A stretch of 64,000 nt of DNA. Source: an uncultured Verrucomicrobiae bacterium. Lineage in GTDB: Bacteria; Verrucomicrobiota; Verrucomicrobiia; Limisphaerales; Palsa-1400. The notes beneath the pieces are model-generated. The model made no database searches, had not been told where the DNA came from, and saw nothing but the letters and a program-made list of their open reading frames with translations. This document shows positions 9,353 to 21,962 of the stretch, piece by piece (position 1 is the stretch's first letter; every line of letters starts with the position of its first letter). The position numbers and the translations under genes were made by a program. Location of the stretch: assembly GCA_963764165.1 (NCBI GenBank), contig CAVXRD010000001.1, positions 544,001 through 608,000 on the forward strand. The letters run 5' to 3'.

Positions 9353-11347
9353 TTAAGCGGATTTTGGCGGGGCGGACCGGGCCGGGGCAGGCGCTCCCGG
9401 GGAAGCAGCACTTTTGGCGGCGGGCTTCGACTCGGCTGCCATTTCCGCGGCAGCGATTTCGCACATCCGCTGAATCTCGGCGGCGCGGCCTGTCACGGCG
9501 CCAGCGCGGGCAGACTGTGTTTTGTTGCCGTGCGAAATGCCTTTGATCTGCTTCGACACATTGCCCGTCGAGGTCGAAATATTCTTGACGGCCTTGGCCT
9601 GCTCCTCCAGGGCCCGGGCGGCTTGCGCGCTTTGCAAACGGATGCTGTCGGCGGCGGTCGTGATCTCCCGGGCGTCAGCCGCCTGGCCGGAGATCGATTT
9701 GCTGACGCGCACGATCAGGTTGACAAGCTTGTCTGTTTCGCGGGAAACCTGCTCCGCCGCCTTGGATTGCTCGGCCAGGGATCGTGCTGTTGACACGGAG
9801 CTTTGCCGCATCGACGAAATGGATTGGGCAATTTGCTGGGTGCCCGCGGATTGCTCCTTCATCGCCTTGCGCAATTGCTCGGCGATGCTGGAAGTCGATT
9901 GGGCGGCCTTGATGATTTCGCGGCCGGCCCGGCCCTGCTCATTCATGGCCTGGGCCACCTCGCGGGAGGCCTTGCGCATGTGAGCCGTGGCCTGGACAAT
10001 CTGGGTGGCGCCCTTGGCTTGCTCGGCCGTTCCCAAGGCGATCTGCCTCGACTGGGTGGAGGTGGCCGAAATAGCCTCGGTGACGCGTTTGGCCGCGAGG
10101 ATTTGCTCCTGCGTGGCGCGGTTGATTTGTGAAATGAGGGTGGCGCTTTCATCCACGCCTGACAAAATGATTTTCAACCCACCCAGGCCGCTTTCCGACT
10201 GCCGGGTGCTTTCCTCCGCAATCCGCATGCCCTGGCTGGCGCTTTCGGTGGCTTCGCGGGTGGCATCCTCAAGGCCGCGCACAATTTCCGAAATGTCCGC
10301 TGTGGCCTTGGCGCAGCGGTCGGCGAGATTGCGGATTTCCTCGGCCACCACGGCGAATCCGCGCCCGGCGTCCCCGGCCCGGGCGGCTTCGATTGATGCA
10401 TTCAACGAAAGCAAGTTCGTGCGCTCGGCAATTAAATTGATCGTGGCCACAATCCCGGAAATATCGCGGGTGCGCTTGTTCAGTTCCCGCATGACGCCGG
10501 CGCTTTGGGTCATGGCGGCGGAAACGCGGCCAATGCCCTTGATGGATTCCTGGATCACTTGCCCGCCTTCGTTGGCCTGCCGCGCGACGCGCGTGCTGAT
10601 TTCTTCTGTCCTCTTGACAAGCTCCGCCACTGACGCGCTCGATCTCTCCATTTGGGTGGAGGTCGTGGCGGATTCGCCCGCCAGTTGCGTGATGCGCTCG
10701 CTGTTTTGCGCGACGCCCTGGATTGAACGGGCCATTTCTTCAATCGAGGTCGATGTTTCCTCAATGGACGACGTCAGGCTCTCGGACATTCCAGCGACTT
10801 CCTCAATCGAAGTGGCCAGTTCATTGATCGAAGTGGAAGTTTCCTCGGCAGCCACGCTCAAGTCGTCCGCGTTCTTGGCCACTCCCGCGCTCGAACGGCT
10901 CAATTCCTCCACGGAAGTTCCCGCTTCCGCCAGCGCCGAAGCCACGTCCTCGCCATCTTCGCTGATGCGTTTAATGGAGGCGGTCGTTTCGGTCATAGCC
11001 GAACTGATCGATTGCGCCCCAACGGACATCTCCTGAGTCTCCGCCGAGACGGATTGGAGCGATTGCGTCATCTGCTTGATCGAAACGGTCGTCTGCGCCG
11101 CCGCGCCCGCCAATTGCGCCGTGTTGGCGGTGACCTGCTCAATCGAGGCCGCTAATTCATTGATGCTCGAGCTGGTCGACTCGGCTGAAGATGCGAGTGA
11201 CTCGGCTTGGGTCGCGGTTTCGGCCAGGGACGAGGCCAATTCCGCTGTTTGCTTGGTGATTTCGGAGACGGATTCCGACATCTTGGCAAAGCTATGGTCT
11301 CGGCCCGTGCCAGCCGCTCCGTTCATGGTTGGTTTTTGCTTTGGCAT
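9353..11347 (-). CDS. Soluble methyl-accepting chemotaxis protein with no TM or sensor domain
   Basis: Hairpin tip [34 protein letters not shown] with long heptad arms on both sides. Confidence 0.9.
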
Positions 11348-11355
11348 AATTAAAG

Positions 11356-11841
11356 TTAAGCTGTTGTTTGCGCTTCGACGGCAACCGGCCCAACCGCGTC
11401 AGGCATTGGAGCGGGCTCCATGGAATCGACGTCCAGTATGGCGTCCAATTCCACCAGGAGAATAAGGCGGTCACCTACCTTGGCAACGGCCTTCAAATAA
11501 TTGCCGCTGATGCCGGTCAAGGTCTGTTCGATGGGGCGAATCGATTTTTCCGTGAGGGAAATAAATTCGCGGGCGGAATCCGCAATCAATCCCACCACGC
11601 GGTCTCGCACTTGCACAAATACAAGGCGGGTGCGGGCGTCGAACGGCGCGCGCGGCAATCCAAAGCGGGTGCGCAAATTCAACGCGGGAATCACCTGGCC
11701 GCGGGAAAAAACCACGCCGTCGATGGCCGGATTGGCGTTCGGCACGACGGTGACGTGCTCCATCATTTCGATGTGGCGCACGTCCGCGCTGTCCACGCCG
11801 TAGGTGGATCCGCCCACTTCAAATAAGATAAATTTTTTCAT
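11356..11841 (-). CDS. cheW: CheW
   Basis: VTVVP...[16 protein letters not shown]...VGLIAD. Confidence 0.9.
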
Positions 11842-13796
11842 TCGACCAAATTCGCGCCTGATTCCGCATCGGTTTCGGCGTCGGCAATTTGCGGGCGCAC
11901 CGCGCCGCGCGTCAGATGCTCGCCGTCCAAAATTAAAACAGGCTTGCCGTCGCCCAGCTCCGTCGCGCCAATGATCCCCGGCGCCTGGCCGAGCGGATCA
12001 CGAATGGCGCGCACCACCACTTCCTTCTGGCCGTGGATTTTGTCAACAATTAAACCGTTGCGCCCCCGATCCGAGCGCAGCACCAGCAGGCAGAGCCGGG
12101 GCAGCGTTGAGGGCGGCAAACGAAACATTGACGATAAGCGCGTTACTGGCAAGGCGCTGTTTCGATAAGGAATCATCTCCACCCGGTTGATCATGCGAAT
12201 ATCCTCAGGCTGCACGTGCATGACTTCGCTGACAAAACTCTGCGGAATCGCGCACGTCTGGCTTGCGGCCGAAACAATCAGGGCCTCGGCAATGGCCAGC
12301 GTCAGGGGCAGCCGCAGGATGAATCGCGTCCCCTTCCCCAGTTCCGATTCCAGGCTGAAGCGGCCACCCAAATCGCGCAGCGTCTCCGCCACCACGCCCA
12401 TGCCCACGCCCCGGCCGGCGGCGCGATCCGCGTCGTCGCGCGTGGAAAAGCCCTGCATGCAAAGAATGTTCAGCAGCGCCGTTGAATCGATGGCCTGGGG
12501 AACTTGCAATCCTTGCGAGCGGGCGCGATTGACCACGGCCTCCGCATCAACACCGCGGCCGTCGTCGAAAACTTCGATCAACGCGGAATCGCCGCTGCTG
12601 GAAGCGCGAAGGGTGATGGTCGCTTCCGGCGATTTTCCGGCGGCGGTGCGTTCCTCCGGTGTTTCCACGCCGTGGCTGAAGGCGTTGCGGACCAAATGCA
12701 GCAAAGGATCTTTCAACCGCTCAAGGACATATTTGTCCATTTCGGTGTTCTGCCCTTCCAAAACGAGCCGCGCCTTTTTGTTCGATTCGCGCGCCAGATC
12801 GCGCACCACGAACGGCATGCGCGCAAAAATTTCCGACACTGGCACCATCCGCACCCGCATGATCGACTCACGCAATTCCCGCAGCGATTGCCCGAGCGAT
12901 TGGTTGAATTCCTGCAAGATGCCGACGTCGATGCTTCCGCCGGTCCGCTTGGCCTGGTTCAACTTTTCTTCAAAACGAGACCGGCAAATGACGAGTTCGC
13001 CGTTGATGCGCATCAATTCGTCGAGCCGGTTCAAGTCCACCCGCATGACGTGCGACGGGGAAAGAAATGGCGTGGCGGCCGCGCTTTTGCCGGCGGGAGC
13101 GGGCTCCTCTTTTTCCACCGCTGCAGGGGCGGCGGGCGCCGACGAGCTTCGGCCCATTTCTTGCGCGGCAATTCCGTCCGCTTCCCATGCTGCCACGTCG
13201 CCGATGGGGTGGCGCGCGTGAACGACAAATTCAAAACTCAATTCACCGCCGCCCGTGACTTTCGGCGCTGCCTCGACAATGTCGCCGATGGCCGCGATGC
13301 GCGCCCGCACGGTATTAATATTGACGCCGCGATCGTCCAATTCGCGCTTCGGGCGAAAGGCAAATTTCCAAACTGGCAGCGTGGCGGAGGCCGAATGCGC
13401 CGCCATTTCACGGAGCGAGGCGAGGAGAAAATCGATGTTGGGAATGGGAGCTTCGTTGCGCACCGCGAGGACCATTTCCTCGAGCTTTTGCGCGGAGTCC
13501 ATCAGGACATCGAGGACGCGGTTATTGATCGTCGAATCACCGCGCTTGAACCCGAGAAAAAATTCCTCGGCCGCATGGGCCAATTCTTCCGCCGCCCTCA
13601 GCCCAACGATGGCGGAGATTCCTTTGAAGGAATGGAAATTGCGGAAAAGATCGTCGATCACCGCAGGGTCAAATTGCCCGGTGGAATGCTCGAGGCTGGC
13701 CAGAGCTTCGCGAATGGCCCTCAAATGCTCGTCGCCCTCGGCGCAAAAATCGTCGACAAGCTCCCGCTGGATAGTTGGTTTTGAGTCCGAGCTCAA
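11838..13796 (-). CDS. cheA: CheA histidine kinase
   Basis: Hpt FRNFHSFKG, HLVRNAFSHG, GRGVGM and a C-terminal CheW domain; TTG start at 13796 overlaps the upstream TGA. Confidence 0.95.
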   Translation of the reverse strand: MSSDSKPTIQRELVDDFCAEGDEHLRAIREALASLEHSTGQFDPAVIDDLFRNFHSFKGISAIVGLRAAEELAHAAEEFFLGFKRGDSTINNRVLDVLMDSAQKLEEMVLAVRNEAPIPNIDFLLASLREMAAHSASATLPVWKFAFRPKRELDDRGVNINTVRARIAAIGDIVEAAPKVTGGGELSFEFVVHARHPIGDVAAWEADGIAAQEMGRSSSAPAAPAAVEKEEPAPAGKSAAATPFLSPSHVMRVDLNRLDELMRINGELVICRSRFEEKLNQAKRTGGSIDVGILQEFNQSLGQSLRELRESIMRVRMVPVSEIFARMPFVVRDLARESNKKARLVLEGQNTEMDKYVLERLKDPLLHLVRNAFSHGVETPEERTAAGKSPEATITLRASSSGDSALIEVFDDGRGVDAEAVVNRARSQGLQVPQAIDSTALLNILCMQGFSTRDDADRAAGRGVGMGVVAETLRDLGGRFSLESELGKGTRFILRLPLTLAIAEALIVSAASQTCAIPQSFVSEVMHVQPEDIRMINRVEMIPYRNSALPVTRLSSMFRLPPSTLPRLCLLVLRSDRGRNGLIVDKIHGQKEVVVRAIRDPLGQAPGIIGATELGDGKPVLILDGEHLTRGAVRPQIADAETDAESGANLVE

Positions 13797-14215
13797 ATCG
13801 TTCCTTGGCCGTGCTGTCGTGCAACCGGATCCTGAACCCTCCCGAGCCACAATAATATCCGCTCGGGGGTAATAGGTTTGACGAGATAATCGGAAGCGCC
13901 AAGGTCGCGGGCGCGCCTTTTGTCCGATTCCTGGTTTGATCCGCTGAGCACTACAACCGGAATCGATTGCATGAGCGGCTGGGATCGAAGCCATTCCAGC
14001 ACTTCAAACCCGTCGACCACCGGCATCTTGAGATCAAGAAAAATGAGGGAGGGGAGCATGCTGCTTTCGCATTGCCCCAAATATTCGACGGCAGTCTGGC
14101 CATCCATGACATGCTTCACTTCGCACGGGATGGTGGCTTTCTCAACTGCCCGTTGGAAAAAAAAGGAGTCATCCTCCGAGTCTTCCACAAGCAGCACCAT
14201 TTGGGCAGAATTCAT
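13793..14215 (-). CDS. Single-domain response regulator
   Basis: LLVEDSEDD, IFLDLKMP, YLVKP. Confidence 0.9.
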   Translation of the reverse strand: MNSAQMVLLVEDSEDDSFFFQRAVEKATIPCEVKHVMDGQTAVEYLGQCESSMLPSLIFLDLKMPVVDGFEVLEWLRSQPLMQSIPVVVLSGSNQESDKRRARDLGASDYLVKPITPERILLWLGRVQDPVARQHGQGTI

Positions 14216-14384: not shown

Positions 14385-14493
14385 GGCAGGGACGCCTCGC
14401 CGAGCGCCGAGGCGTCCGGGGCAAGGCATTATTCATACGCATACCGCAGCATTAATCCCGCGCAACCGGACGCCTCGGAGAGGCGCCCCTGCC
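14385..14493. repeat. Degenerate REP doublet, family A
   Basis: GGCAGGGACGCCTCGCCGAG...GAGGCGTCC and GGACGCCTCGGAGAGGCGCCCCTGCC. Confidence 0.75.
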
Positions 14494-14653
14494 TTTCAGA
14501 GGGCTTGTCAAAATTTGATTTGCGCTCGGAAGCCTCTCCTGCATTCGTAGGTTTAGGGCAGGAAGGCCAAGACATCTGCTTTGAGGCGTTATTCATGCCA
14601 TCTCCGTTTTTTCGCGCAAAATACAGTGCTGGAAGTGAAGGCGGTTGGAGCGC

Positions 14654-14959
14654 ATGATTTCGTCGATGATTCGCAGGTTCTGGCCAAAATTTTTCTTGTA
14701 TGCCGCGGCGCTTTCGGTGCCTCCCGTTTGCGTTGCCGTCTTTTCCAGGCTCGATGCCCTCAGCGCGGTTCTGCTCGGGGGATGGGCCGGCATTGCGGCG
14801 GCGGTCGCATGCACCATTTGGATGGTGCGCGATTCGAAGGCCAGGGGCTGGCGCGCCGCGTTATTGTATGTGGGCGTTGGAATGGCGCTTTGCGCCCTGA
14901 GTCTTGCCTCGACGTTCATCAGCTATTTCCTGGGGCCGGGCGCCTCGATTCCAAATTGA
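14654..14959 (+). CDS. Small 3-TM membrane protein; first gene of the radical SAM operon
   Basis: Three hydrophobic segments; GGAG upstream of the ATG; ends 3 bp before the radical SAM ATG. Confidence 0.65.
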   Translation: MISSMIRRFWPKFFLYAAALSVPPVCVAVFSRLDALSAVLLGGWAGIAAAVACTIWMVRDSKARGWRAALLYVGVGMALCALSLASTFISYFLGPGASIPN

Positions 14960-14962
14960 AGC

Positions 14963-16339
14963 ATGAGCGCGCCGAAATCCAGTTTCCCGCCGCGATTGGA
15001 ACTCGTGGACAAGATACTGAAGCGCACCATGTCCCGCTGCCCGATTTGTCACGCGCGCTGCTCCGCTGAAGTGTGGCGCACCGGCGGCATTCCCTCCAAA
15101 ATCCTGCTCACGCGCCTGTGTGCCACCCACGGTCCCGCAACGGTTTGCATCGCTTCCGACGCCCGATTCTACTGGCTCTCGCGCGGCAAAGACGCGAATT
15201 CGCGCTGCCCCGCCCAGGCCTGCCGCGCGTCCGACGAAGCCCCGGCGGGAACGCTCGGGCGAAACGCGGAACCGGGCGATGCGCTCGGCGTGCAGGAAAA
15301 ACTTTCTACTTGTCTTGCGCTGATCGAGATAGTGAACTCGTGCAACCTCGCCTGCCCAACTTGTTACGCCGATTCGCCCGTCGGCGCGGGCGCAGAAGTG
15401 GACGCGGTTCCGGTGGAGGATTTGAAACGCCGCATCCAAGGCGTGGTGGATCGCAAAGGAAACATCGAAATCCTCCAGCTTTCCGGCGGCGAACCGACGC
15501 TGCATCCGCAATTCTTCGAGATGCTGCGCTGGCTGCAGGATCATCCGAGCATTGATTACGTTCTGTTGAATACCAATGGCGTCCGCATTGCCAACGACGA
15601 AGAGTTCACGCGCGAACTTGCCTCAGCCTTTCACTACGGAGCGTTCCAACTCTATTTGCAATTCGACGGCCCGCAGGAGGAAGGCCAGCGGTTCCTGCGC
15701 GGCGGAGATTTCCGGCGCGTGCGCGAACAATGCCTCGAACGCTGCCGGGAAATGAACATTCCCGTGACGCTCGCCATGACGGTCACGCGCGAAAATCTTC
15801 CCTTCCTTTGGGCGTCCATCGAGTTCGGCCTGCAATATCCGAATGTTCGCGGCATCAGCTTCCAGCCCGTCTTTGGCAGCGGACGCATCCCAAAACTCGA
15901 CGAGGCGCCGCTGAACACGGCGGACATCATTCTGGGCGCGGTCGGGCAGTCGGGCGGCGGCCTTCGTTTCGACGACTTCACGCCGCTGCCGTGCGGCGAT
16001 CCAAATTGCGCTACCATCGGCTACCTTCTGAAAGTGGACGGCAAAGTGCGCTCGGTCAGCGACTTCATCGATTTCACCGCGGTGCAGGGATTTCTTCATG
16101 ACAAGGTTCGATACAAGCTGGAGGATTTGATGAAATGCGGCTGCGAATCTGAGCCGCTGGGCGACCTCCTCAAGAAATTCGAACTCGATGAAACACATAC
16201 CTTTCGTTTGTTCATCAAACCATTCATGGACGCCTCGACCTGGGACGAGGATAGGATTGACCGTTGCTGCACGCATGTGATTCGGCCGGATGGAAAGCTG
16301 GATTCGTTTTGCAGGTATTATTCGGGGTTTAAAGCATGA
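14963..16339 (+). CDS. Radical SAM enzyme, Tes/GDGT-MAS (MJ0619)-like family
   Basis: N-terminal CPIC...CATHG, CNLACPTC, SGGEPT, TNG, YLQFDG, RGISFQPV, and C-terminal FMD...RCCTH..PDGKLDSFC. Confidence 0.85.
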   Translation: MSAPKSSFPPRLELVDKILKRTMSRCPICHARCSAEVWRTGGIPSKILLTRLCATHGPATVCIASDARFYWLSRGKDANSRCPAQACRASDEAPAGTLGRNAEPGDALGVQEKLSTCLALIEIVNSCNLACPTCYADSPVGAGAEVDAVPVEDLKRRIQGVVDRKGNIEILQLSGGEPTLHPQFFEMLRWLQDHPSIDYVLLNTNGVRIANDEEFTRELASAFHYGAFQLYLQFDGPQEEGQRFLRGGDFRRVREQCLERCREMNIPVTLAMTVTRENLPFLWASIEFGLQYPNVRGISFQPVFGSGRIPKLDEAPLNTADIILGAVGQSGGGLRFDDFTPLPCGDPNCATIGYLLKVDGKVRSVSDFIDFTAVQGFLHDKVRYKLEDLMKCGCESEPLGDLLKKFELDETHTFRLFIKPFMDASTWDEDRIDRCCTHVIRPDGKLDSFCRYYSGFKA

Positions 16340-16653
16340 GTGATGAGAATCCAGAGAATTCGATTCAGCGAGAAATCGCGTATGTGCTGTTGGCTTTGTC
16401 GCCTATTCCGATCTTTCTGATTGAGGCGCATTTTGCCGCCCGTCACGCAACGCAATTCATGGAGTCGCTTGTTAAAGGCACGTGTTTTCTCTACGCGCCA
16501 CTCGTTTCATTTGGAGGCGCTCATGGCATCGCTCGAAATTTGAAACCGGACGGACAGCCAAGTGGGCTCGTGACTTTCTTTGGCGGGTTGGCTTTTCTAT
16601 TTGTGAATGCCGTAGTTACCGTGGCAATCGGGTGTTCAGGCGCCCGGCTATGA
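16336..16653 (+). CDS. Small 3-TM protein, paralog A, C-terminal AIGC
   Basis: ATGA overlap with the radical SAM gene; VLLALSP and N-x7-GC. Confidence 0.75.
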   Translation: MSDENPENSIQREIAYVLLALSPIPIFLIEAHFAARHATQFMESLVKGTCFLYAPLVSFGGAHGIARNLKPDGQPSGLVTFFGGLAFLFVNAVVTVAIGCSGARL

Positions 16654-16691
16654 TGGGCGGCGTATTTCGTTGATGATTCAACTTTGCAAAG

Positions 16692-17021
16692 ATGGACAAC
16701 CAACCGATGAAGCCAAAGGGACGCTCGAAAATGGTTTGGGTGCTGGTGGCGCTTTCGCCGATCCCAATCGTGCTGATGGAATCCGGTCTCGTCTCCGCCC
16801 ATCGGATCGGTCTGCCCGTCGTAATTTTCACCTGCCTATATTTCAATGCGGCCCCCTCTCTGATCGGAGCTTTTAAACTCATTAGCGCCCGGAAGATTGA
16901 CTTGGCGGGCAGCATCTTCCTGAGTCTCCTGCTCGCGGCAGGCTTCTATGTGATTAACCTCGTCGGTGGAATTGCCGGATGCAGCATGATTACCAGCGAA
17001 GATATCTTCAAAGGGCGCTGA
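16692..17021 (+). CDS. Small 3-TM protein, paralog B, C-terminal IAGC
   Basis: VLVALSP and N-x6-GC. Confidence 0.75.
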   Translation: MDNQPMKPKGRSKMVWVLVALSPIPIVLMESGLVSAHRIGLPVVIFTCLYFNAAPSLIGAFKLISARKIDLAGSIFLSLLLAAGFYVINLVGGIAGCSMITSEDIFKGR

Positions 17022-17034
17022 ATTAACTCCTTTC

Positions 17035-17352
17035 ATGAACGACACCAATGCCAAAGGGAATATGAAGCCAGTGCTCATCGCGCTGTCGCCGACGCTTCTG
17101 ATCCTGTTTGCGATTGGCATGGCGGCCTTTGATTATAACGATTCGTTCTTTGTTCTTTTCATGATGTTTACCTATCTCATTTACTGCCCGTTCGTGTCGC
17201 TGCTGGGCGGGTTTCAGATAACGCGCAATCCCGTTATTGGAAGGGCCGCCCGAATTACTAGGGGATTCGGAATGGCCCTATGTTTCGTTATTTTGAATTA
17301 CATCATTGGCTTTATCGGCTGCGCAGCAGTTGACAAGGTCGCTCACCATTAA
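17035..17352 (+). CDS. Small 3-TM protein, paralog C, C-terminal FIGC
   Basis: VLIALSP and N-x6-GC. Confidence 0.75.
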   Translation: MNDTNAKGNMKPVLIALSPTLLILFAIGMAAFDYNDSFFVLFMMFTYLIYCPFVSLLGGFQITRNPVIGRAARITRGFGMALCFVILNYIIGFIGCAAVDKVAHH

Positions 17353-17357
17353 GACCT

Positions 17358-18098
17358 ATGCGCCCCGATCTTCATGAGACCGGTTACGGCTGGCTGATGT
17401 TTGCGGGCATCGTGGTTAGCATTCTGATGTGGTCGCGGGTCGCCCGGCGCGATGGGCGGCTGCCGCTGATTTACGTGGCCGCGCTGTTCGGCGCGTTCGC
17501 GGGGGCGAAGATTGTTTACCTTGCGGCGGAGGGCTGGCTTTACTGGAATGATCCAAATCGCTGGATCATTCTGGCCACGGGAAAATCCATCACTGGCGCG
17601 TTTCTCGGCGGATATGCGGCGGTCGAGATCGCCAAGCGCGCGCTTGGATACAAGACCGCCACGGGTGATTGGTTCGCTGTCATTGCGCCGCTGGGGATCA
17701 TGTTCGGGCGCGTCGGCTGCATGGTGCATGGCTGCTGCCTTGGCGAAGTATGCGCGCCAAGCTGGTATACCATGAACGACAGCCACGGCGTCGCGCGCTG
17801 GCCGGCGGCGGCGGTGGAATTGATCTTCAACGCCATCATGCTCGGCGTGGCCTTGCTGCTGAAACGATTCAAGATTTTGCCCGGCCAGCATTTTCATATT
17901 TACTTGATGGCTTACGGAACATTTCGATTCGTCCACGAATTTCTTCGTGACACGCCGCGCATCGTCGGCCCGTTTTCCGGCTACCAAATCGCCGCGCTGG
18001 CGGTGGCAGCGCTGGGAGCAGTGGGATTTATTTTACGTCGGCGAAAAGCTATGCCCGAAAGCGCGTCAACTGTGGCGGATCCTCGAACAGCTACGTAA
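17358..18098 (+). CDS. Divergent prolipoprotein diacylglyceryl transferase (Lgt) family protein
   Basis: GAKI, GRVGCMVHGCCLG, YGTFRFVHEFLRD; multiple TM segments. Confidence 0.85.
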   Translation: MRPDLHETGYGWLMFAGIVVSILMWSRVARRDGRLPLIYVAALFGAFAGAKIVYLAAEGWLYWNDPNRWIILATGKSITGAFLGGYAAVEIAKRALGYKTATGDWFAVIAPLGIMFGRVGCMVHGCCLGEVCAPSWYTMNDSHGVARWPAAAVELIFNAIMLGVALLLKRFKILPGQHFHIYLMAYGTFRFVHEFLRDTPRIVGPFSGYQIAALAVAALGAVGFILRRRKAMPESASTVADPRTAT

Positions 18099-18137
18099 TT
18101 CGCCTGCGAATTCTGCTGTTAGCTTCTTCATCCCAAA

Positions 18138-18240
18138 GGTAGGGACGCCTCGCCGAGGCGTCCGGGGTGAGGCACTGTCTACGCGCGCCGCGTGGGCATT
18201 TTTCACACGCAACCGGACGCCTCGGCGAGGCGTCCCTACC
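18138..18240. repeat. Intact REP doublet, family A
   Basis: GGTAGGGACGCCTCGCCGAGGCGTCC ... GGACGCCTCGGCGAGGCGTCCCTACC. Confidence 0.9.
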
Positions 18241-18278
18241 TTTAACAGGCCCCGCCAAGTGAAGACTCGAGTGAATGT

Positions 18279-19670
18279 TTAATTCTTTACGGGCCCTGTT
18301 TCCTTGCTCACCCATTCCATTGCGCCTTCTAGCGTTCCAAAGGTTCCTTCCAGTTGCGCTTCGTAGGCCTTCTCCAAAATCTCACCAAGGTGCTTGCCGG
18401 GTTTCAGGCCTATGGCCAGGAGATGCCGGCCTTGCAGTATCGGCGGCGCAGGGCTTTGGCGGACTTCCAACTCGTAGGCCTTGGCCAGCAACGCTTTCAC
18501 ATTTTCGGGGATGACGGCGGGGCGCGGGGGGCGACCCATGCTATCGGCGGACATGACTACGCAAAGGCCTTCGATGTTCTCCGGAGACAGACGGCGGGCG
18601 AGGCGGCGGACGGCGCGGTCGGAAATTGTCTCAAGGTGGAATAAGTGGTTTTGCACCAGTGGGAGGACGCGCTGGACGATTGACACCGGAGTGCGGATGC
18701 GTTCGAGAAACGCGCGGGCGGGTTCGACCCCGGCGCTTTCGTGGCCGGGTGACACGATGCGTTCGCGGCCATCCTTCACGGCACGGTGGGTGCAGCCCGG
18801 TTTTCCGAAATCGTGGGCCAGCACGGCGAGCATGTAGACGGCTTTGGATTCGGGATCGGCAGCTTGCCAGGCGGGGAGCGCCACCATCGCATCGCAGCAA
18901 TGGCAGGTGTGGACGAAAACGTCGCCTTCGGGGTGCCATTCGGGCTCCTGCGGGACGCCCATAAGCGCTTTGATTTCAGGGAAGTGATCGATCCATTCCG
19001 TCTCCGCCAGGAAGCGCAAGCCGGCCGAGGGGCGGCGGCTGCGCTGGGCCCATTTGAACCATTCGTCGCGCACGCGTTCGACGGCCAGTTCGCCAAAACT
19101 GCATTTCATGCGCCGCGAAATCTCGAGCGTCTCGGGCGCGCCGGTGAGATCGAATCGCCCGGCGAATTGCATGCCGCGCAGCACGCGCAACGGGTCTTCG
19201 CCGAACGCCGCGCTCTTGTGGCGAAGAACGCGATTTTGCAAATCTTCCTGCCCGCCGAAAAAATCGAGCGCCTCGCGTTTGCGGGGGTCGTACATGATCG
19301 AGTTGATGGTGAAATCTCGCCGCGCGGCTGCCTCCCGAAGCCCTATGCCGGGCTCGAACGCGACTTCAAATCCCTTGTGGCCGGGAGCGATTTTGGAATC
19401 TTTGCGCGGAAGGGTGAAATCGTATTCGTGCCCGCTTTGGGTGGTGAGCTTGACGACGCCAAAGGAGCGCCCGACCAAATCGGGGCGGCCCCAGCGCGAA
19501 AGGGCGGCGACGAGCTGGTCGCAATCGACGCCGAAGACTTCCACATCGAAGTCTTTCTGATGCGGATGACCAGCCAGGGCGTCGCGAACGCAACCGCCGA
19601 CCAAATAGGCCTGCTGCAATTCCGGTGTTTCTTGGAGGATTTGCTCCAATTCAGCCGGGACGAAATTCAT
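18279..19670 (-). CDS. cca: CCA-adding/poly(A) polymerase family nucleotidyltransferase with HD domain
   Basis: VGGCVRD..DFDVE, RRDFTIN, EDPLRVLR, HPEGDVFVHT, LAHDFGK; start placed at MNFVP. Confidence 0.85.
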   Translation of the reverse strand: MNFVPAELEQILQETPELQQAYLVGGCVRDALAGHPHQKDFDVEVFGVDCDQLVAALSRWGRPDLVGRSFGVVKLTTQSGHEYDFTLPRKDSKIAPGHKGFEVAFEPGIGLREAAARRDFTINSIMYDPRKREALDFFGGQEDLQNRVLRHKSAAFGEDPLRVLRGMQFAGRFDLTGAPETLEISRRMKCSFGELAVERVRDEWFKWAQRSRRPSAGLRFLAETEWIDHFPEIKALMGVPQEPEWHPEGDVFVHTCHCCDAMVALPAWQAADPESKAVYMLAVLAHDFGKPGCTHRAVKDGRERIVSPGHESAGVEPARAFLERIRTPVSIVQRVLPLVQNHLFHLETISDRAVRRLARRLSPENIEGLCVVMSADSMGRPPRPAVIPENVKALLAKAYELEVRQSPAPPILQGRHLLAIGLKPGKHLGEILEKAYEAQLEGTFGTLEGAMEWVSKETGPVKN

Positions 19671-19739
19671 GGGAGGAATGTGACTTATGGAAGCGGTCGA
19701 GGCGAGAAGTATTCGGGCGGTTCGCGGCTCGGAAGATGG

Positions 19740-19875
19740 CGCGGCGGGAATCGCGAAGGGAGCGGTCGGAGAGGGCGCCGACCGCGACACGCGAGGCGCG
19801 TGTGCTCCCCAGGCCTTTAATTCCAGGGAGCGCACGCGCCCCCGCGTGCAGCGGGACGCGCCTCGCGTCGCGCAT
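19740..19875. repeat. GC-rich palindromic intergenic repeats (GGGAGCGCACGCGCC type)
   Basis: GAGGCGCGTGTGCTCCCC and inverted GGGAGCGCACGCGCCCCCGCGTGC. Confidence 0.55.
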
Positions 19876-19947
19876 CCCATTTTAACACCAAAACGGTTCC
19901 TTGGCAGCCTCGCCCTGCCACGCGTTGTTCTCTTTTCCCCTCTTGGG

Positions 19948-20901
19948 CTACCGCATTGGTGGGGGCATCGTGCCGGACGAGTTGGCGGAGGTGCGGTCGC
20001 GCATCCAAAGCCAGTCGCGGAAGTCTGCCTCGTTCTTGATCGGGCCGCCTTTGCCGGTTTTGGGCTGCACGCTTAACCATTGGTGCGACTCCGAATGGCC
20101 GTCGGCAAAAGCAAAGCCACAGCCGCCGTTATGGTATGTTCCTGGCGCATCCCTCCATTGCGCCAACTCCATTCCAAAGGCGAAGGCGGCGTCGTTGAGA
20201 TTCTTGACATCTTCGTCCACCAGCACCCACAGCCCCGATGGGCCCGGCGCGCGAATGCCGGACATTTTCCCGTACGTATACCAAGGCTGGTCGCGCTTGT
20301 GCGTTCGCTGGTTATTGAGCCACGGTCCGTTCACCGGCAGCGTCGGAGCGCCGACGTGCAACGGCGTGCCTCCCCCGATCCCATTCTCATATTGATCGTA
20401 GCCCGCGCAAATGGTTCCAACGGCCTGGCTCATGGAAAATGTTCGCGCGGCGGGAACGGTCTTTCCGATCATCGAGGGGTCGCTTCCTTGATAAGGGCCC
20501 AGCCGCAAATCCGCCGGGCAATGAAACACGCTGACGCTGCCGTGCAAATACGAAGCAAGCAGGCTGCGCGACTGGTCGCGGAGAATGTCGGGATTGAACT
20601 CCGCGCTTTGACCAATGCCCGCGCTCCCGCTGCACCAATTGTGGCCGGGGATGGTGTTGCCGTCGTCCGGGTTTGGAGGAAAGAGATCGTGAAAATCAGA
20701 GGTATACATGGTCATCGCCGTCATCATCTGCTTTCCGTTGCCGAGGCAATAAGTTTGCTGCGCCTTTTGCTTGCCCTTGGAGAGCGCCGGCAAGACCAAT
20801 GCGGCCAGAATTCCAATGATCGCGATCACCACGAGCATTTCAGTGAGCGTGAAGGCTTCATCATTGGTGGCGGTGCGCGCCCGCGCATTTCGAATCTTCA
20901 T
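19948..20901 (-). CDS. Prepilin-type N-terminal cleavage/methylation protein with H-X9-DG motif
   Basis: AFTLTEMLVVIAIIGILAA; YHNGGCGFAFADGHSE; start placed at MKIRN. Confidence 0.9.
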   Translation of the reverse strand: MKIRNARARTATNDEAFTLTEMLVVIAIIGILAALVLPALSKGKQKAQQTYCLGNGKQMMTAMTMYTSDFHDLFPPNPDDGNTIPGHNWCSGSAGIGQSAEFNPDILRDQSRSLLASYLHGSVSVFHCPADLRLGPYQGSDPSMIGKTVPAARTFSMSQAVGTICAGYDQYENGIGGGTPLHVGAPTLPVNGPWLNNQRTHKRDQPWYTYGKMSGIRAPGPSGLWVLVDEDVKNLNDAAFAFGMELAQWRDAPGTYHNGGCGFAFADGHSESHQWLSVQPKTGKGGPIKNEADFRDWLWMRDRTSANSSGTMPPPMR

Positions 20902-20903
20902 AT

Positions 20904-21962
20904 TCAATTCGGCTTCGGTTGGCGGTTCAAACTTGCTTCCAATGCCAGCGTAGCGGCGTTCCAAATTTTGATCGTGTAGTCGTCCCTGCACGCCGTGGCA
21001 ATGCGCGAGCCGTCTGGTGAATAGGCCAAACCAAAACATTCTCCTGTGTGTGCGGTGACCGAGTTTATCATTTTGCCGGTCTGCGGATCCCACAGCACCA
21101 AGGTGCCGTCGGCATAGAGAGTGGCGAGCGTTTTGTCGTCCGGCGAAAACGCGATGTTGTTGACTTCCCCGGCGCAGGCAATGTCCTCTTTGACGGTTTT
21201 GGCGGCGGTTTTCCACAGGCGAAGAGTTGTGCGCGATCCCGAGGCAAACATGGAACCGTCGTGCGAAAATGTGACATACTCCGCCCTTTGGCTGCCGGGT
21301 TTCCCATTGAACGGCTCCAGCGCCACCGGCTCGCCGGAACTGGCCATCGTGAAAAAGTAAAGTTTCCCGCTGCGCGTGGCGCCAACGACGAAGGCGCCAT
21401 CCGGTGAAATGGCCACGCTGAGAAATTTCTCGCCCTGGACCAAAAGCAGACGCTGTTCCTTCCCGTCTGCGTTCCAAGTGTCGATCGTGCCGTCAAATGT
21501 GGCGCTGGCAACAAGCTGGCAATCGTCCGAGATGGCAACCGCGTTCACCTGGCTGGCTGGCGGAGAGAATATTCGCAGAGGTTTTCCGTCTATGGGATCA
21601 ACTAGTTTAGTCATCCCGGCAAAATCTCCGATGGCGATGAATTTCCCATTTTTTGCCCATGCAACACTGCGGATGCTGCCAATCTGCCGAACGACTTTCG
21701 CCCGGCGATCACCGATTTTCCAGAACACCAGCTCGCCAGGCTTCGGAGGGCGCTGCGGACCGGTCTGGCCTGTGGAGGCCACCACAGTATTGCCATCGGG
21801 AGAAAAACAGGTGGCCCAATATTTTTCCGGCGGAGGTTCTGGTGCTGAAGACTTGATAAGCCACCAGACGACACCGCCGATGACGGCAAGAAACGCCAAT
21901 GCAAGCCCCAATGCCATTGGCCCAATTCTTCGGCGTGAACTGCCTGGTATCATGCCACTCAT
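20904..21962 (-). CDS. Membrane-anchored WD40 repeat protein
   Basis: N-terminal TM; repeated FSPDG...W[DN] blades. Confidence 0.9.
   Translation of the reverse strand: MSGMIPGSSRRRIGPMALGLALAFLAVIGGVVWWLIKSSAPEPPPEKYWATCFSPDGNTVVASTGQTGPQRPPKPGELVFWKIGDRRAKVVRQIGSIRSVAWAKNGKFIAIGDFAGMTKLVDPIDGKPLRIFSPPASQVNAVAISDDCQLVASATFDGTIDTWNADGKEQRLLLVQGEKFLSVAISPDGAFVVGATRSGKLYFFTMASSGEPVALEPFNGKPGSQRAEYVTFSHDGSMFASGSRTTLRLWKTAAKTVKEDIACAGEVNNIAFSPDDKTLATLYADGTLVLWDPQTGKMINSVTAHTGECFGLAYSPDGSRIATACRDDYTIKIWNAATLALEASLNRQPKPN

Follow-up and report, generated by a model that had tools for sequence, protein, structure and literature searches.

A candidate protein-lipidation module pairing a Tes-like radical SAM enzyme with an Lgt paralogue and cysteine-tailed membrane proteins

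Our analyses of a 64,000-nucleotide stretch of DNA from an uncultured Verrucomicrobiae bacterium (GenBank assembly GCA_963764165.1, contig CAVXRD010000001.1, positions 544,001 to 608,000 of the forward strand; hereafter the window, numbered from its first letter) revealed a cluster of six open reading frames (ORFs) on the + strand, at 14654-18098, in which an enzyme of the radical S-adenosylmethionine (SAM) type is encoded together with a paralogue of the diacylglyceryl transferase Lgt and three small membrane proteins that carry a cysteine near their C termini. The module is real, widespread and, apparently, undescribed; how it works we infer. The most direct reading, and taken across all the mechanisms weighed below a likely one, is that this private Lgt lipidates the co-encoded small proteins, because the only feature common to those proteins in sequence is the group on which Lgt acts. 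We tentatively regard the unit of radical SAM enzyme, Lgt paralogue and Cys-bearing membrane proteins as an accessory, self-contained protein-lipidation module.

Results

A radical SAM enzyme gene and an Lgt paralogue are linked across bacterial phyla

Each of the six ORFs has an ATG start and a stop codon, and the spacings between them, in order 3, -4, 38, 13 and 5 bp, reproduce those given in the initial annotation, which had described six tightly packed, co-oriented genes. The radical SAM enzyme (14963..16339, +; 458 residues) belongs to the GDGT-MAS/Tes/TrsS superfamily. Its stop codon is overlapped by the start of p1 (16336..16653, +; 105 residues), a three-helix membrane protein, which is followed by its paralogues p2 (16692..17021, +; 109 residues) and p3 (17035..17352, +; 105 residues) and by the Lgt paralogue (17358..18098, +; 246 residues).

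We compared 80 Verrucomicrobiota-type loci (clade 1; L001-L080) and 80 metagenome loci of a second clade with ~30% identical enzymes (L122-L201; GC content 0.35-0.70). The linkage on which the initial annotation had built its proposal recurs in both, with an Lgt paralogue near the enzyme in 67/80 clade-1 and 63/80 second-clade loci. Ten of the 13 clade-1 misses have under 900 bp of sequence downstream, and the other three are genomes that hold the paralogue on another contig, where in two cases a Cys-tailed ORF adjoins it. In the split cluster G262, a Cys-tailed ORF lies beside the radical enzyme and another beside the Lgt paralogue. When second-clade loci have more than 1.5 kb on both sides, the paralogue is found in 40/40. 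The linkage spans Verrucomicrobiota, Bacteroidota and Actinomycetota, with Chondrinema, Persicobacter, Mycobacterium branderi and Nonomuraea among the named carriers; the closest relatives are Verrucomicrobiota records, mainly from Limisphaerales/Pedosphaera and Chthoniobacterales, so that the host probably belongs there as well. In a plasmid collection, all five records with the paralogue fall among the eight with the enzyme. As for viral carriage, the radical SAM matches in the 80 loci kept were all weak and partial, the best having E 3e-10.

Among 61 genomes, comprising the window's own and 60 relatives, 12 encode the enzyme and all 12 encode the paralogue as well; 11 of the 12 also carry a housekeeping-type Lgt and nine match the small-protein profile, to which some of the 61 genomes had supplied sequences. 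Two weak matches to that profile (E 8e-5 and 2e-4) occur in genomes lacking the module. Across 201 genomes of the phylum, a near orthologue is present in one, the window's own, and three more have a distant Lgt-linked type. Because this distribution (1/201 phylum genomes, 12/61 relatives) is patchy, core lipid synthesis was ruled out as the role of the module. Distances between enzymes and between their paralogues are correlated (Spearman 0.79 across 48 pairs, and 0.60 and 0.74 for the two clades taken singly), the kin in these comparisons not being independent. The 48 pairs, out of 126, comprise random draws of 18/58 and 22/60 from the two clades, the window pair and seven distant pairs, and the tree built from them contains no Tes outgroup.

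The one apparent enzyme-Lgt fusion among longer proteins (P0121), considered as a sign of a complex, was rejected as a frameshift read-through, its C-terminal motifs being lost in an off-frame stretch; the fusion search returned two matches among 8,000 candidates, and absence there says little. One same-genus genome (L293; G201:C24, ~73200-73950) holds the paralogue alone, with the enzyme not found there. This copy is without its first helix and runs into the beginning of a zinc-ribbon ORF; to judge from its sequence, it is probably a deletion relic.

The small membrane proteins share a tail cysteine

The three window paralogues are 25-31% identical to each other, and each ends its last helix in Gly-Cys (Cys100 in p1, Cys97 in p2 and Cys96 in p3), followed by 5, 12 and 9 residues, respectively. 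The initial annotation had called them lipobox-tailed peptides. The Gly-Cys at the end of the last helix stands for all three, but the Cys is internal, near rather than at the C terminus and outside any N-terminal signal peptide, and of two lipobox patterns the strict one fits only p2 (Ile-Ala-Gly-Cys97), with the relaxed one fitting p1, p2 and p3 as well as 86/123 clade-1 tails.

To avoid selecting for the residue in question, we used a screen blind to Cys, which collected small ORFs near the enzyme in the 80 clade-1 loci that share its orientation and have at least two predicted helices; 37 Lgt fragments were removed from the 189 near ORFs before counting. A tail Cys, defined as a Cys after a hydrophobic stretch and within 16 residues of the ORF end, was present in 129/152 neighboring small membrane ORFs versus 36/369 genome-wide, and a [GA]C tail in 125/152 versus 13/369. 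Small ORFs further off in the same loci have a tail Cys in only 2/20 cases, and 75/80 loci contain at least one tail-Cys ORF. Dropping duplicates by their last 25 residues reduced the 125 tails to the set of 123 used for pattern counts. In addition, a hidden Markov model (HMM) made from 27 ORFs of other genomes, selected on length and hydropathy alone, matched p1 (E 3.6e-13), p2 (E 2.3e-14) and p3 (E 6.9e-10) and nothing more in the 7-Mb genome. The conservation of the Cys that the initial annotation required of homologs was also found among database relatives: of the best 150, 147 have [GA]C within 22 residues of their end, and by eye the remaining three keep a tail Cys too, the profile behind these matches having included the Cys column.

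The family is otherwise highly divergent. It comprises 904 clusters at 50% identity, occurs in 1-4 copies per locus, and has a mean pairwise identity of 21% with a Cys column at 100% (in a set picked for Cys); an N-terminal zinc ribbon is present in 44/123 clade-1 members. Common to the small proteins are a positively charged loop, the hydrophobic helix after it and the Cys at the end of that helix, and almost nothing else. By the positive-inside rule, the positively charged flank of a helix faces the cytoplasm, and Lgt acts on the periplasmic side. Because the residues leading into the last helix carry a net positive charge (in 113/129 proteins), the Cys is predicted to face the periplasm. 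After it come 2 to 18 residues, another helix or an entire folded domain. With nothing beyond the Cys common to every form, the Cys or a lipid is left as the common target.

In the second clade, 40/80 loci have a tail-Cys ORF by our filter. Inspection by eye of 20 loci of this clade revealed nine with hairpin proteins in which the Cys follows helix 1, four with apparent N-terminal lipoproteins in the same slot and several with nothing of the kind. Lipoproteins with soluble domains and an N-terminal lipobox Cys were seen by eye in this slot in L098, L126, L177, L184 and L196. Because the slot holds hairpin proteins or classical-looking lipoproteins elsewhere, the tail Cys appears to behave like a lipobox.

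Several variants of the small proteins were also observed. The Bacteroidota versions measure only 59-67 residues. Forms of ~280 residues with seven to eight helices (L001:7393-8235, and in L052, L055, L073 and L078) have the small-protein domain with its tail Cys as their last three helices, one L052 copy of this long form lacking the Cys. In L013:7814-8788, L021:2973-3986 and L022:4218-5189, a soluble domain of >200 residues that matches no Pfam family follows the Gly-Cys. The ending [NSDTG]-hydrophobic-[HRK] occurs in 22/123 tails of L001-L080 and 10/49 of L122-L201, against shuffle means of 2.2 and 0.8, an excess that is overstated, as the pattern was devised after viewing the tails; 16 of the best 150 database relatives end in Ile-Ala-Pro. 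No Pfam or NCBIfam family exceeded its cut-off for the window small proteins, nor for those of the relatives, apart from PEMT/ICMT and DUF4870 neighbors, and all that the ESM Atlas returned were clusters without names, at 0.91-0.92 and of low recognition.

The first gene of the operon (14654..14959, +) encodes a 101-residue membrane protein that belongs, in degenerate form, to the upstream family of small proteins. It is 37% identical over 95 residues (E 2e-9) to a Gly-Cys-tailed upstream ORF of the same-genus locus L038, has Gly-Pro in place of the Gly-Cys of its relatives, is without the zinc ribbon at their N termini, and matches neither a Pfam or NCBIfam family nor the p1-p3 profile. By these features it is probably not a lipidation substrate. 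Directly upstream of the module in 24/80 loci (e.g., L064:4926-5354), though not in the window, lies a four-helix membrane protein with no tail Cys and no Pfam family.

The Lgt paralogue is a second, divergent copy

The initial annotation identified the last gene as an Lgt paralogue, and its product indeed passes the Pfam LGT model (PF01790; 88.6 bits versus a gathering cut-off of 24.9). The same genome encodes a separate housekeeping Lgt on contig C4, which passes both Pfam LGT and the equivalog model TIGR00544 (167.7 bits), so the module copy is additional to it. The structure model of the paralogue has seven long helices and matches E. coli Lgt (5AZB) with Z 11.0 and a root mean square deviation (rmsd) of 4.8 over 210 aligned residues, the next match being at 6.1; for helical bundles, Z under ~13 counts as weak. 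The paralogue keeps Y10, R118, G129, Y186, R190, E194 and R197, which correspond to E. coli Y26, R143, G154, Y235, R239, E243 and R246, and hence has equivalents of all of the essential residues Y26, R143, G154 and R239 of the housekeeping enzyme.

Elsewhere there are differences from E. coli Lgt. C121 of the paralogue sits at the N146 position, and a Cys is found there in 18/18 housekeeping-type Lgts from related genomes too. Thus, because housekeeping copies carry it, this change is no mark of lost function, and it was ruled out as a hallmark of the paralogue. Consistent with this, according to the available text of PMC13251419, the Leptospira interrogans Lgt with Cys at N146 partly complements E. 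coli. At the H103 position the paralogue has T79, together with a new conserved K76. The H103 motif is replaced by K/R-S/T-I/V-x-G in 126/130 paralogues, and 18/18 housekeeping-type copies have Y, F or H at H103. In sequence, then, it is the changed H103 motif, not N146C, that sets the paralogues apart.

Two further paralogues were of note. In that of M. branderi (L093:3337-4122), His replaces Y26 and Cys replaces N146. The same two changes (Y26H and N146C) are reported for MSMEG_5408 of M. smegmatis (PMC13251419, available text), whose lipid preference has been speculated to differ. In P0122, an Lgt paralogue is joined to a PF00144 domain on one short contig, possibly as a read-through artefact.

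The radical SAM enzyme has a GDGT-MAS-type fold

The enzyme gene is single-copy in the genome, and its product matches Pfam Radical_SAM and Zn_ribbon_HMPTM. The best sequence match among solved structures was GDGT-MAS (7TOL, E 1e-35). A structure model (predicted local distance difference test score 81) aligned with 7TOM over 395 residues with Z 39.2 and rmsd 2.6, compared to Z 18.9 for the next family and Z 19 or less for peptide maturases, and Foldseek gave a template-modeling score of 0.74 (E 5e-31) against GDGT-MAS. The rubredoxin-type site C-X2-C-X20-C-X2-H (C26/C29/C53/H56) is kept in 58/58 clade-1 and 60/60 clade-2 enzymes. The SAM cluster motif CX3CX2C is C127/C131/C134, and the C-terminal domain is Cys-rich (C344, C435, C436, C450 and others), with C435, C436 and C450 aligning in sequence with the CC and FC of 7TOL.

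In the alignment with 7TOL, Met439 and Tyr459 of GDGT-MAS are replaced by K419 and V439 (with an inferred 20-residue numbering offset), and the labile Met ligand position is Lys in 53/58 clade-1 enzymes. The available text of the GDGT-MAS study (PMC9433317) describes both residues as conserved in 1,000 archaeal homologues and their variants as still active; because both are dispensable there, their loss does not exclude similar chemistry. The same text reports that GDGT-MAS binds E. coli phospholipids and that its reaction runs via a lipid S-C intermediate on the C-terminal cluster. The window enzyme has no transmembrane segment (highest 19-residue hydropathy 1.32). Since it has none and needs SAM and iron-sulfur (Fe-S) clusters, it should be cytoplasmic. 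The modeled fold suggests a lipid substrate without proving tail coupling.

Tes-like enzymes with no Lgt in the stretches fetched were found in L091, L095, L100, L101 and L102, where their neighbors are methyltransferases or another radical SAM gene; they are other uncharacterised systems of the superfamily. A PEMT/ICMT-family methyltransferase (Pfam) lies within the operon of L099 (L099:6090-6746), and similar methyltransferase ORFs were seen by eye at L098:5064-5798 and, beside an Lgt-less relative, at L101:10033-10707. Such ORFs might provide an extra methylation step.

Proposed mechanism and alternatives

The mechanism we favor, while giving it somewhat less than an even chance, is that the radical enzyme couples the tails of free phospholipids and that the paralogue then transfers the coupled lipid to the Cys. 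This order is preferred because the enzyme is predicted to be cytoplasmic, its modeled build is that of a lipid-binding enzyme and the peptides share no residue beyond the Cys. The soluble enzyme would bind phospholipid at the membrane's inner face, abstract hydrogen from the acyl tails and couple them through its C-terminal Fe-S cluster, by analogy with GDGT-MAS, giving a macrocyclic or membrane-spanning lipid of the phosphatidylglycerol type. The Lgt paralogue, its cavity altered at the H103 site, would take this lipid as donor and move the diacylglyceryl part to the periplasm-facing Cys at the end of the in-to-out helix, which would act as an internal type II signal. LspA, of which the genome encodes one, outside the locus, may then cut before the Cys and free lipopeptides of 6, 13 and 10 residues; alternatively, p1-p3 may stay whole. 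Stated more generally, it is a little short of an even call that a Tes-derived enzyme and a private Lgt anchor proteins or short peptides through a tail-coupled lipid, a macrocyclic or membrane-spanning diacylglyceryl on Cys. This would amount to a new post-translational modification, one directed by internal lipoboxes for which the housekeeping pathway makes no provision. Because presence is patchy, copy number varies and tails diverge, surface or signaling roles are suggested over bulk membrane adaptation.

A number of observations weigh against this mechanism. The enzyme is only 24-28% identical to GDGT-MAS, scores 148.1 bits on the Tes model NF045702 (cut-off 450) and 203 bits on the TrsS model NF045646 (cut-off 490), thus reaching neither but scoring higher on TrsS. 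TrsS is the top-scoring NCBIfam model for the enzyme and for five relatives, which reach 137-324 bits on NF045702. Thus, the designation Tes-like in the initial annotation holds for the fold but not in the sense of a Tes orthologue. The N-terminal auxiliary cluster motif (C73, C77, C80 and a His) is missing from the window enzyme and found in 0/58 clade-1 enzymes, as opposed to 60/60 of clade 2, although C82, C87 and C117 might stand in for its cysteines; in the second clade it is the C-terminal CC and FC cysteines that are mostly lost. Between two C-terminal segments that align to 7TOL the window clade is ~40 residues shorter, the missing part presumably being the helices of the second lipid pocket. 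Because superfamily members without Lgt in the fetched stretches exist (L091, L095 and L100-L102), and because the Lgt-linked enzymes do not form one clade in the FastTree tree, the fold does not fix the reaction. On the lipidation side, the paralogue does not reach TIGR00544 (39.9 versus 118.9 bits), and its H103 position is small or aliphatic, with H103 described as essential in E. coli Lgt and as Y, W or F in other Lgts in the available text of PMC13251419. The other 40/80 second-clade loci have no tail-Cys ORF by our filter, only 10/49 clade-2 tails fit the relaxed lipobox, and no precedent for lipidation of a Cys behind several helices was found in the literature searched. Finally, Tes homologues track bacterial membrane-spanning lipids poorly, being present in 3/14 iso-diabolic-acid acidobacteria as given in the available part of PMC13159169.

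Other arrangements of the same components were considered. The enzyme could modify the small protein itself, in its tail or helix, in the cytoplasm, with ordinary diacylglyceryl transfer and LspA release to follow; the product would be a short modified lipopeptide and the helix bundle its leader. This is the logic of the DAG-RiPPs (diacylglycerol-bearing peptides that are made on ribosomes and then post-translationally modified), a precedent with another enzyme class in the accessible text of PMC13056109, and the hypervariable multi-copy precursors (1-4 per locus, 904 clusters), the patchy distribution and the above-shuffle tail endings, their excess overstated as noted, are in keeping with it. 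We nevertheless consider it unlikely: there is no post-Cys residue common to all forms, the tails range from 2 to 18 residues to a helix or domain, the ending motif is absent from the tails of p1-p3, and the modeled fold is nearer a lipid-binding enzyme (Z 39) than the peptide maturases. A slightly less likely possibility is that the two enzymes make a new free lipid, the Lgt-fold protein moving diacylglyceryl to a non-protein acceptor. The small proteins would then serve as accessory subunits, as carriers or as sensors, their Cys being a metal ligand or part of a disulfide. The loss of the H103 residue, the non-canonical residues at -1 of the Cys in clade 2, the zinc ribbons in 44/123 clade-1 small proteins and the methyltransferase in the L099 operon, with its counterpart in L098, would fit such a free-lipid pathway. 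It sits poorly with the fact that the sole invariant feature is the target group of Lgt, placed as in a signal peptide, and with the classical-looking lipoproteins in the same slot; moreover, 21% identity and variable architecture suit substrates better than subunits.

The remaining arrangements are constrained by topology. The initial annotation had proposed that lipidation comes first and that the enzyme then crosslinks or cyclizes the attached chains; in a further version, it would weld one chain to an inner-leaflet lipid to form a bilayer-spanning tether. The same linkage evidence applies to this order, in G262 small proteins remain next to the radical enzyme and not only next to Lgt, and the shorter C-terminal region might accommodate a protein substrate. 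However, the enzyme, having no membrane segment and needing SAM and Fe-S clusters, should be in the cytoplasm, whereas chains on a periplasmic Cys would lie in the outer leaflet. Because topology thus separates the enzyme from the predicted periplasmic Cys, crosslinking after attachment is the less likely order, and we regard it as improbable. The same separation counts against radical C-S coupling, in which a lipid-tail radical, rather than closing a C-C bond, would be joined to sulfur, either of the protein Cys or of a cluster sulfide, with the Lgt-fold protein presenting or transferring the lipid. The lipid S-C intermediate of GDGT-MAS (PMC9433317, available text) and the Lys at the labile Met position in 53/58 clade-1 enzymes speak for it, but the paralogue retains the phosphate-binding arginines needed for diacylglyceryl transfer, and we consider C-S coupling very improbable.

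Genomic surroundings of the module

The initial annotation noted that the operon is bracketed by repetitive extragenic palindromic (REP) doublets. These are real, a palindromic doublet upstream (14385..14496; no Rfam match) and an inverted doublet downstream (18135..18243; 31-nt arms, 100% complementary). However, the REP unit occurs ~320 times in the genome (155 + 164, at up to 2 mismatches), so the bracketing is not special to the module, and it was ruled out as a mobile-element or boundary signal. Inside the downstream doublet, between the operon and the convergent gene for a CCA-adding enzyme, is a terminator-like hairpin (18176-18198); the eight such hairpins of the region are unremarkable in number (shuffle range 6.6 ± 2.3). 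A search of the locus for structured RNA or a promoter gave no Rfam match and no sigma-70-like site.

Divergent from the operon, on the - strand at 9353-14215, is a chemotaxis-type region in which a response regulator (Pfam) comes first, followed by ORFs that we take to be CheA-, CheW- and soluble-chemoreceptor-like. The convergent gene (18279-19880, - strand) encodes a CCA-adding/poly(A) polymerase with an HD domain, and beyond it (19948-21962, - strand) are ORFs that resemble a WD40-repeat protein and a protein with prepilin-type N-terminal cleavage.

Discussion

The literature searched, mostly open-access texts with supplements outside its coverage, does not describe this module; "Lgt-like" together with "radical SAM" returned nothing, and a dedicated Lgt with its own hypervariable substrates was not found there. 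Bacterial Tes and Lgt homologues are tabulated in the supplements to PMC8941075 and PMC13251419, where the pairing might be noted. If our interpretation is correct, many bacterial "Tes homologues" serve protein modification rather than bulk synthesis of glycerol dialkyl glycerol tetraethers of the branched type (brGDGTs). In the available texts of PMC8941075 and PMC11868695, Tes homologues are used as candidate markers of brGDGT producers, a link described as unconfirmed, and a large Lgt-linked subset would have to leave such counts. The module would also account for one class of additional Lgt copies, and lipidation would come to include a Cys that lies beyond several membrane helices. As a tool, it would provide a small pair of enzymes with which to make tail-coupled lipopeptides. 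Because the operon names candidate substrates, the function of a bacterial Tes homologue becomes directly testable. Even with a radical step other than the one we favor, a dedicated Lgt with hypervariable substrates would have no counterpart in the literature searched.

On defining features the module falls outside Tes and TrsS, and equally outside the housekeeping Lgt, the classical lipoproteins and the DAG-RiPPs, and what it resembles, by analogy, is the lipoprotein pathway plus a GDGT-MAS-type step. With GDGT-MAS/Tes (Methanocaldococcus jannaschii MJ0619; 7TOL, 7TOM; NF045702) its enzyme shares the fold, the rubredoxin site, the SAM cluster motif and, by alignment, the C-terminal CC...FC cysteines, but it is distant in sequence, lacks the N-terminal cluster motif, Met439 and Tyr459, has a shorter C-terminal region, and is encoded alongside an Lgt paralogue and Cys-bearing membrane proteins in a module that is patchy, not core. 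The TrsS radical SAM (seleno)protein model NF045646 scores best, yet the enzyme stays below its cut-off. Radical tail-to-tail coupling of ester lipids does exist in bacteria, through Mss, which the available texts of PMC13159169 and PMC13459092 describe as only remotely related to Tes and found in anaerobes. Like the Lgt-LspA-Lnt pathway (PF01790, TIGR00544, 5AZB), the module has a seven-helix Lgt fold with equivalents of R143, G154, R239, E243 and R246, and presumed substrates whose Cys follows a charged stretch and a hydrophobic helix. Unlike that pathway, its Lgt is a second copy with K[ST][IV]xG in place of the H103 motif, its target Cys lies ~100 residues in, behind several helices, and it has a radical SAM partner. 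The nearest published idea is the DAG-RiPPs (MNIO-type, e.g., DybA/DybH). In the available text of PMC13056109, where the word "radical" is absent, these likewise combine a cytoplasmic modifier with a co-encoded precursor bearing a conserved lipidation Cys, but rely on a canonical N-terminal signal, the host's own Lgt and an MNIO enzyme, whereas the module described here has a radical SAM enzyme, an internal Cys and a cognate Lgt paralogue.

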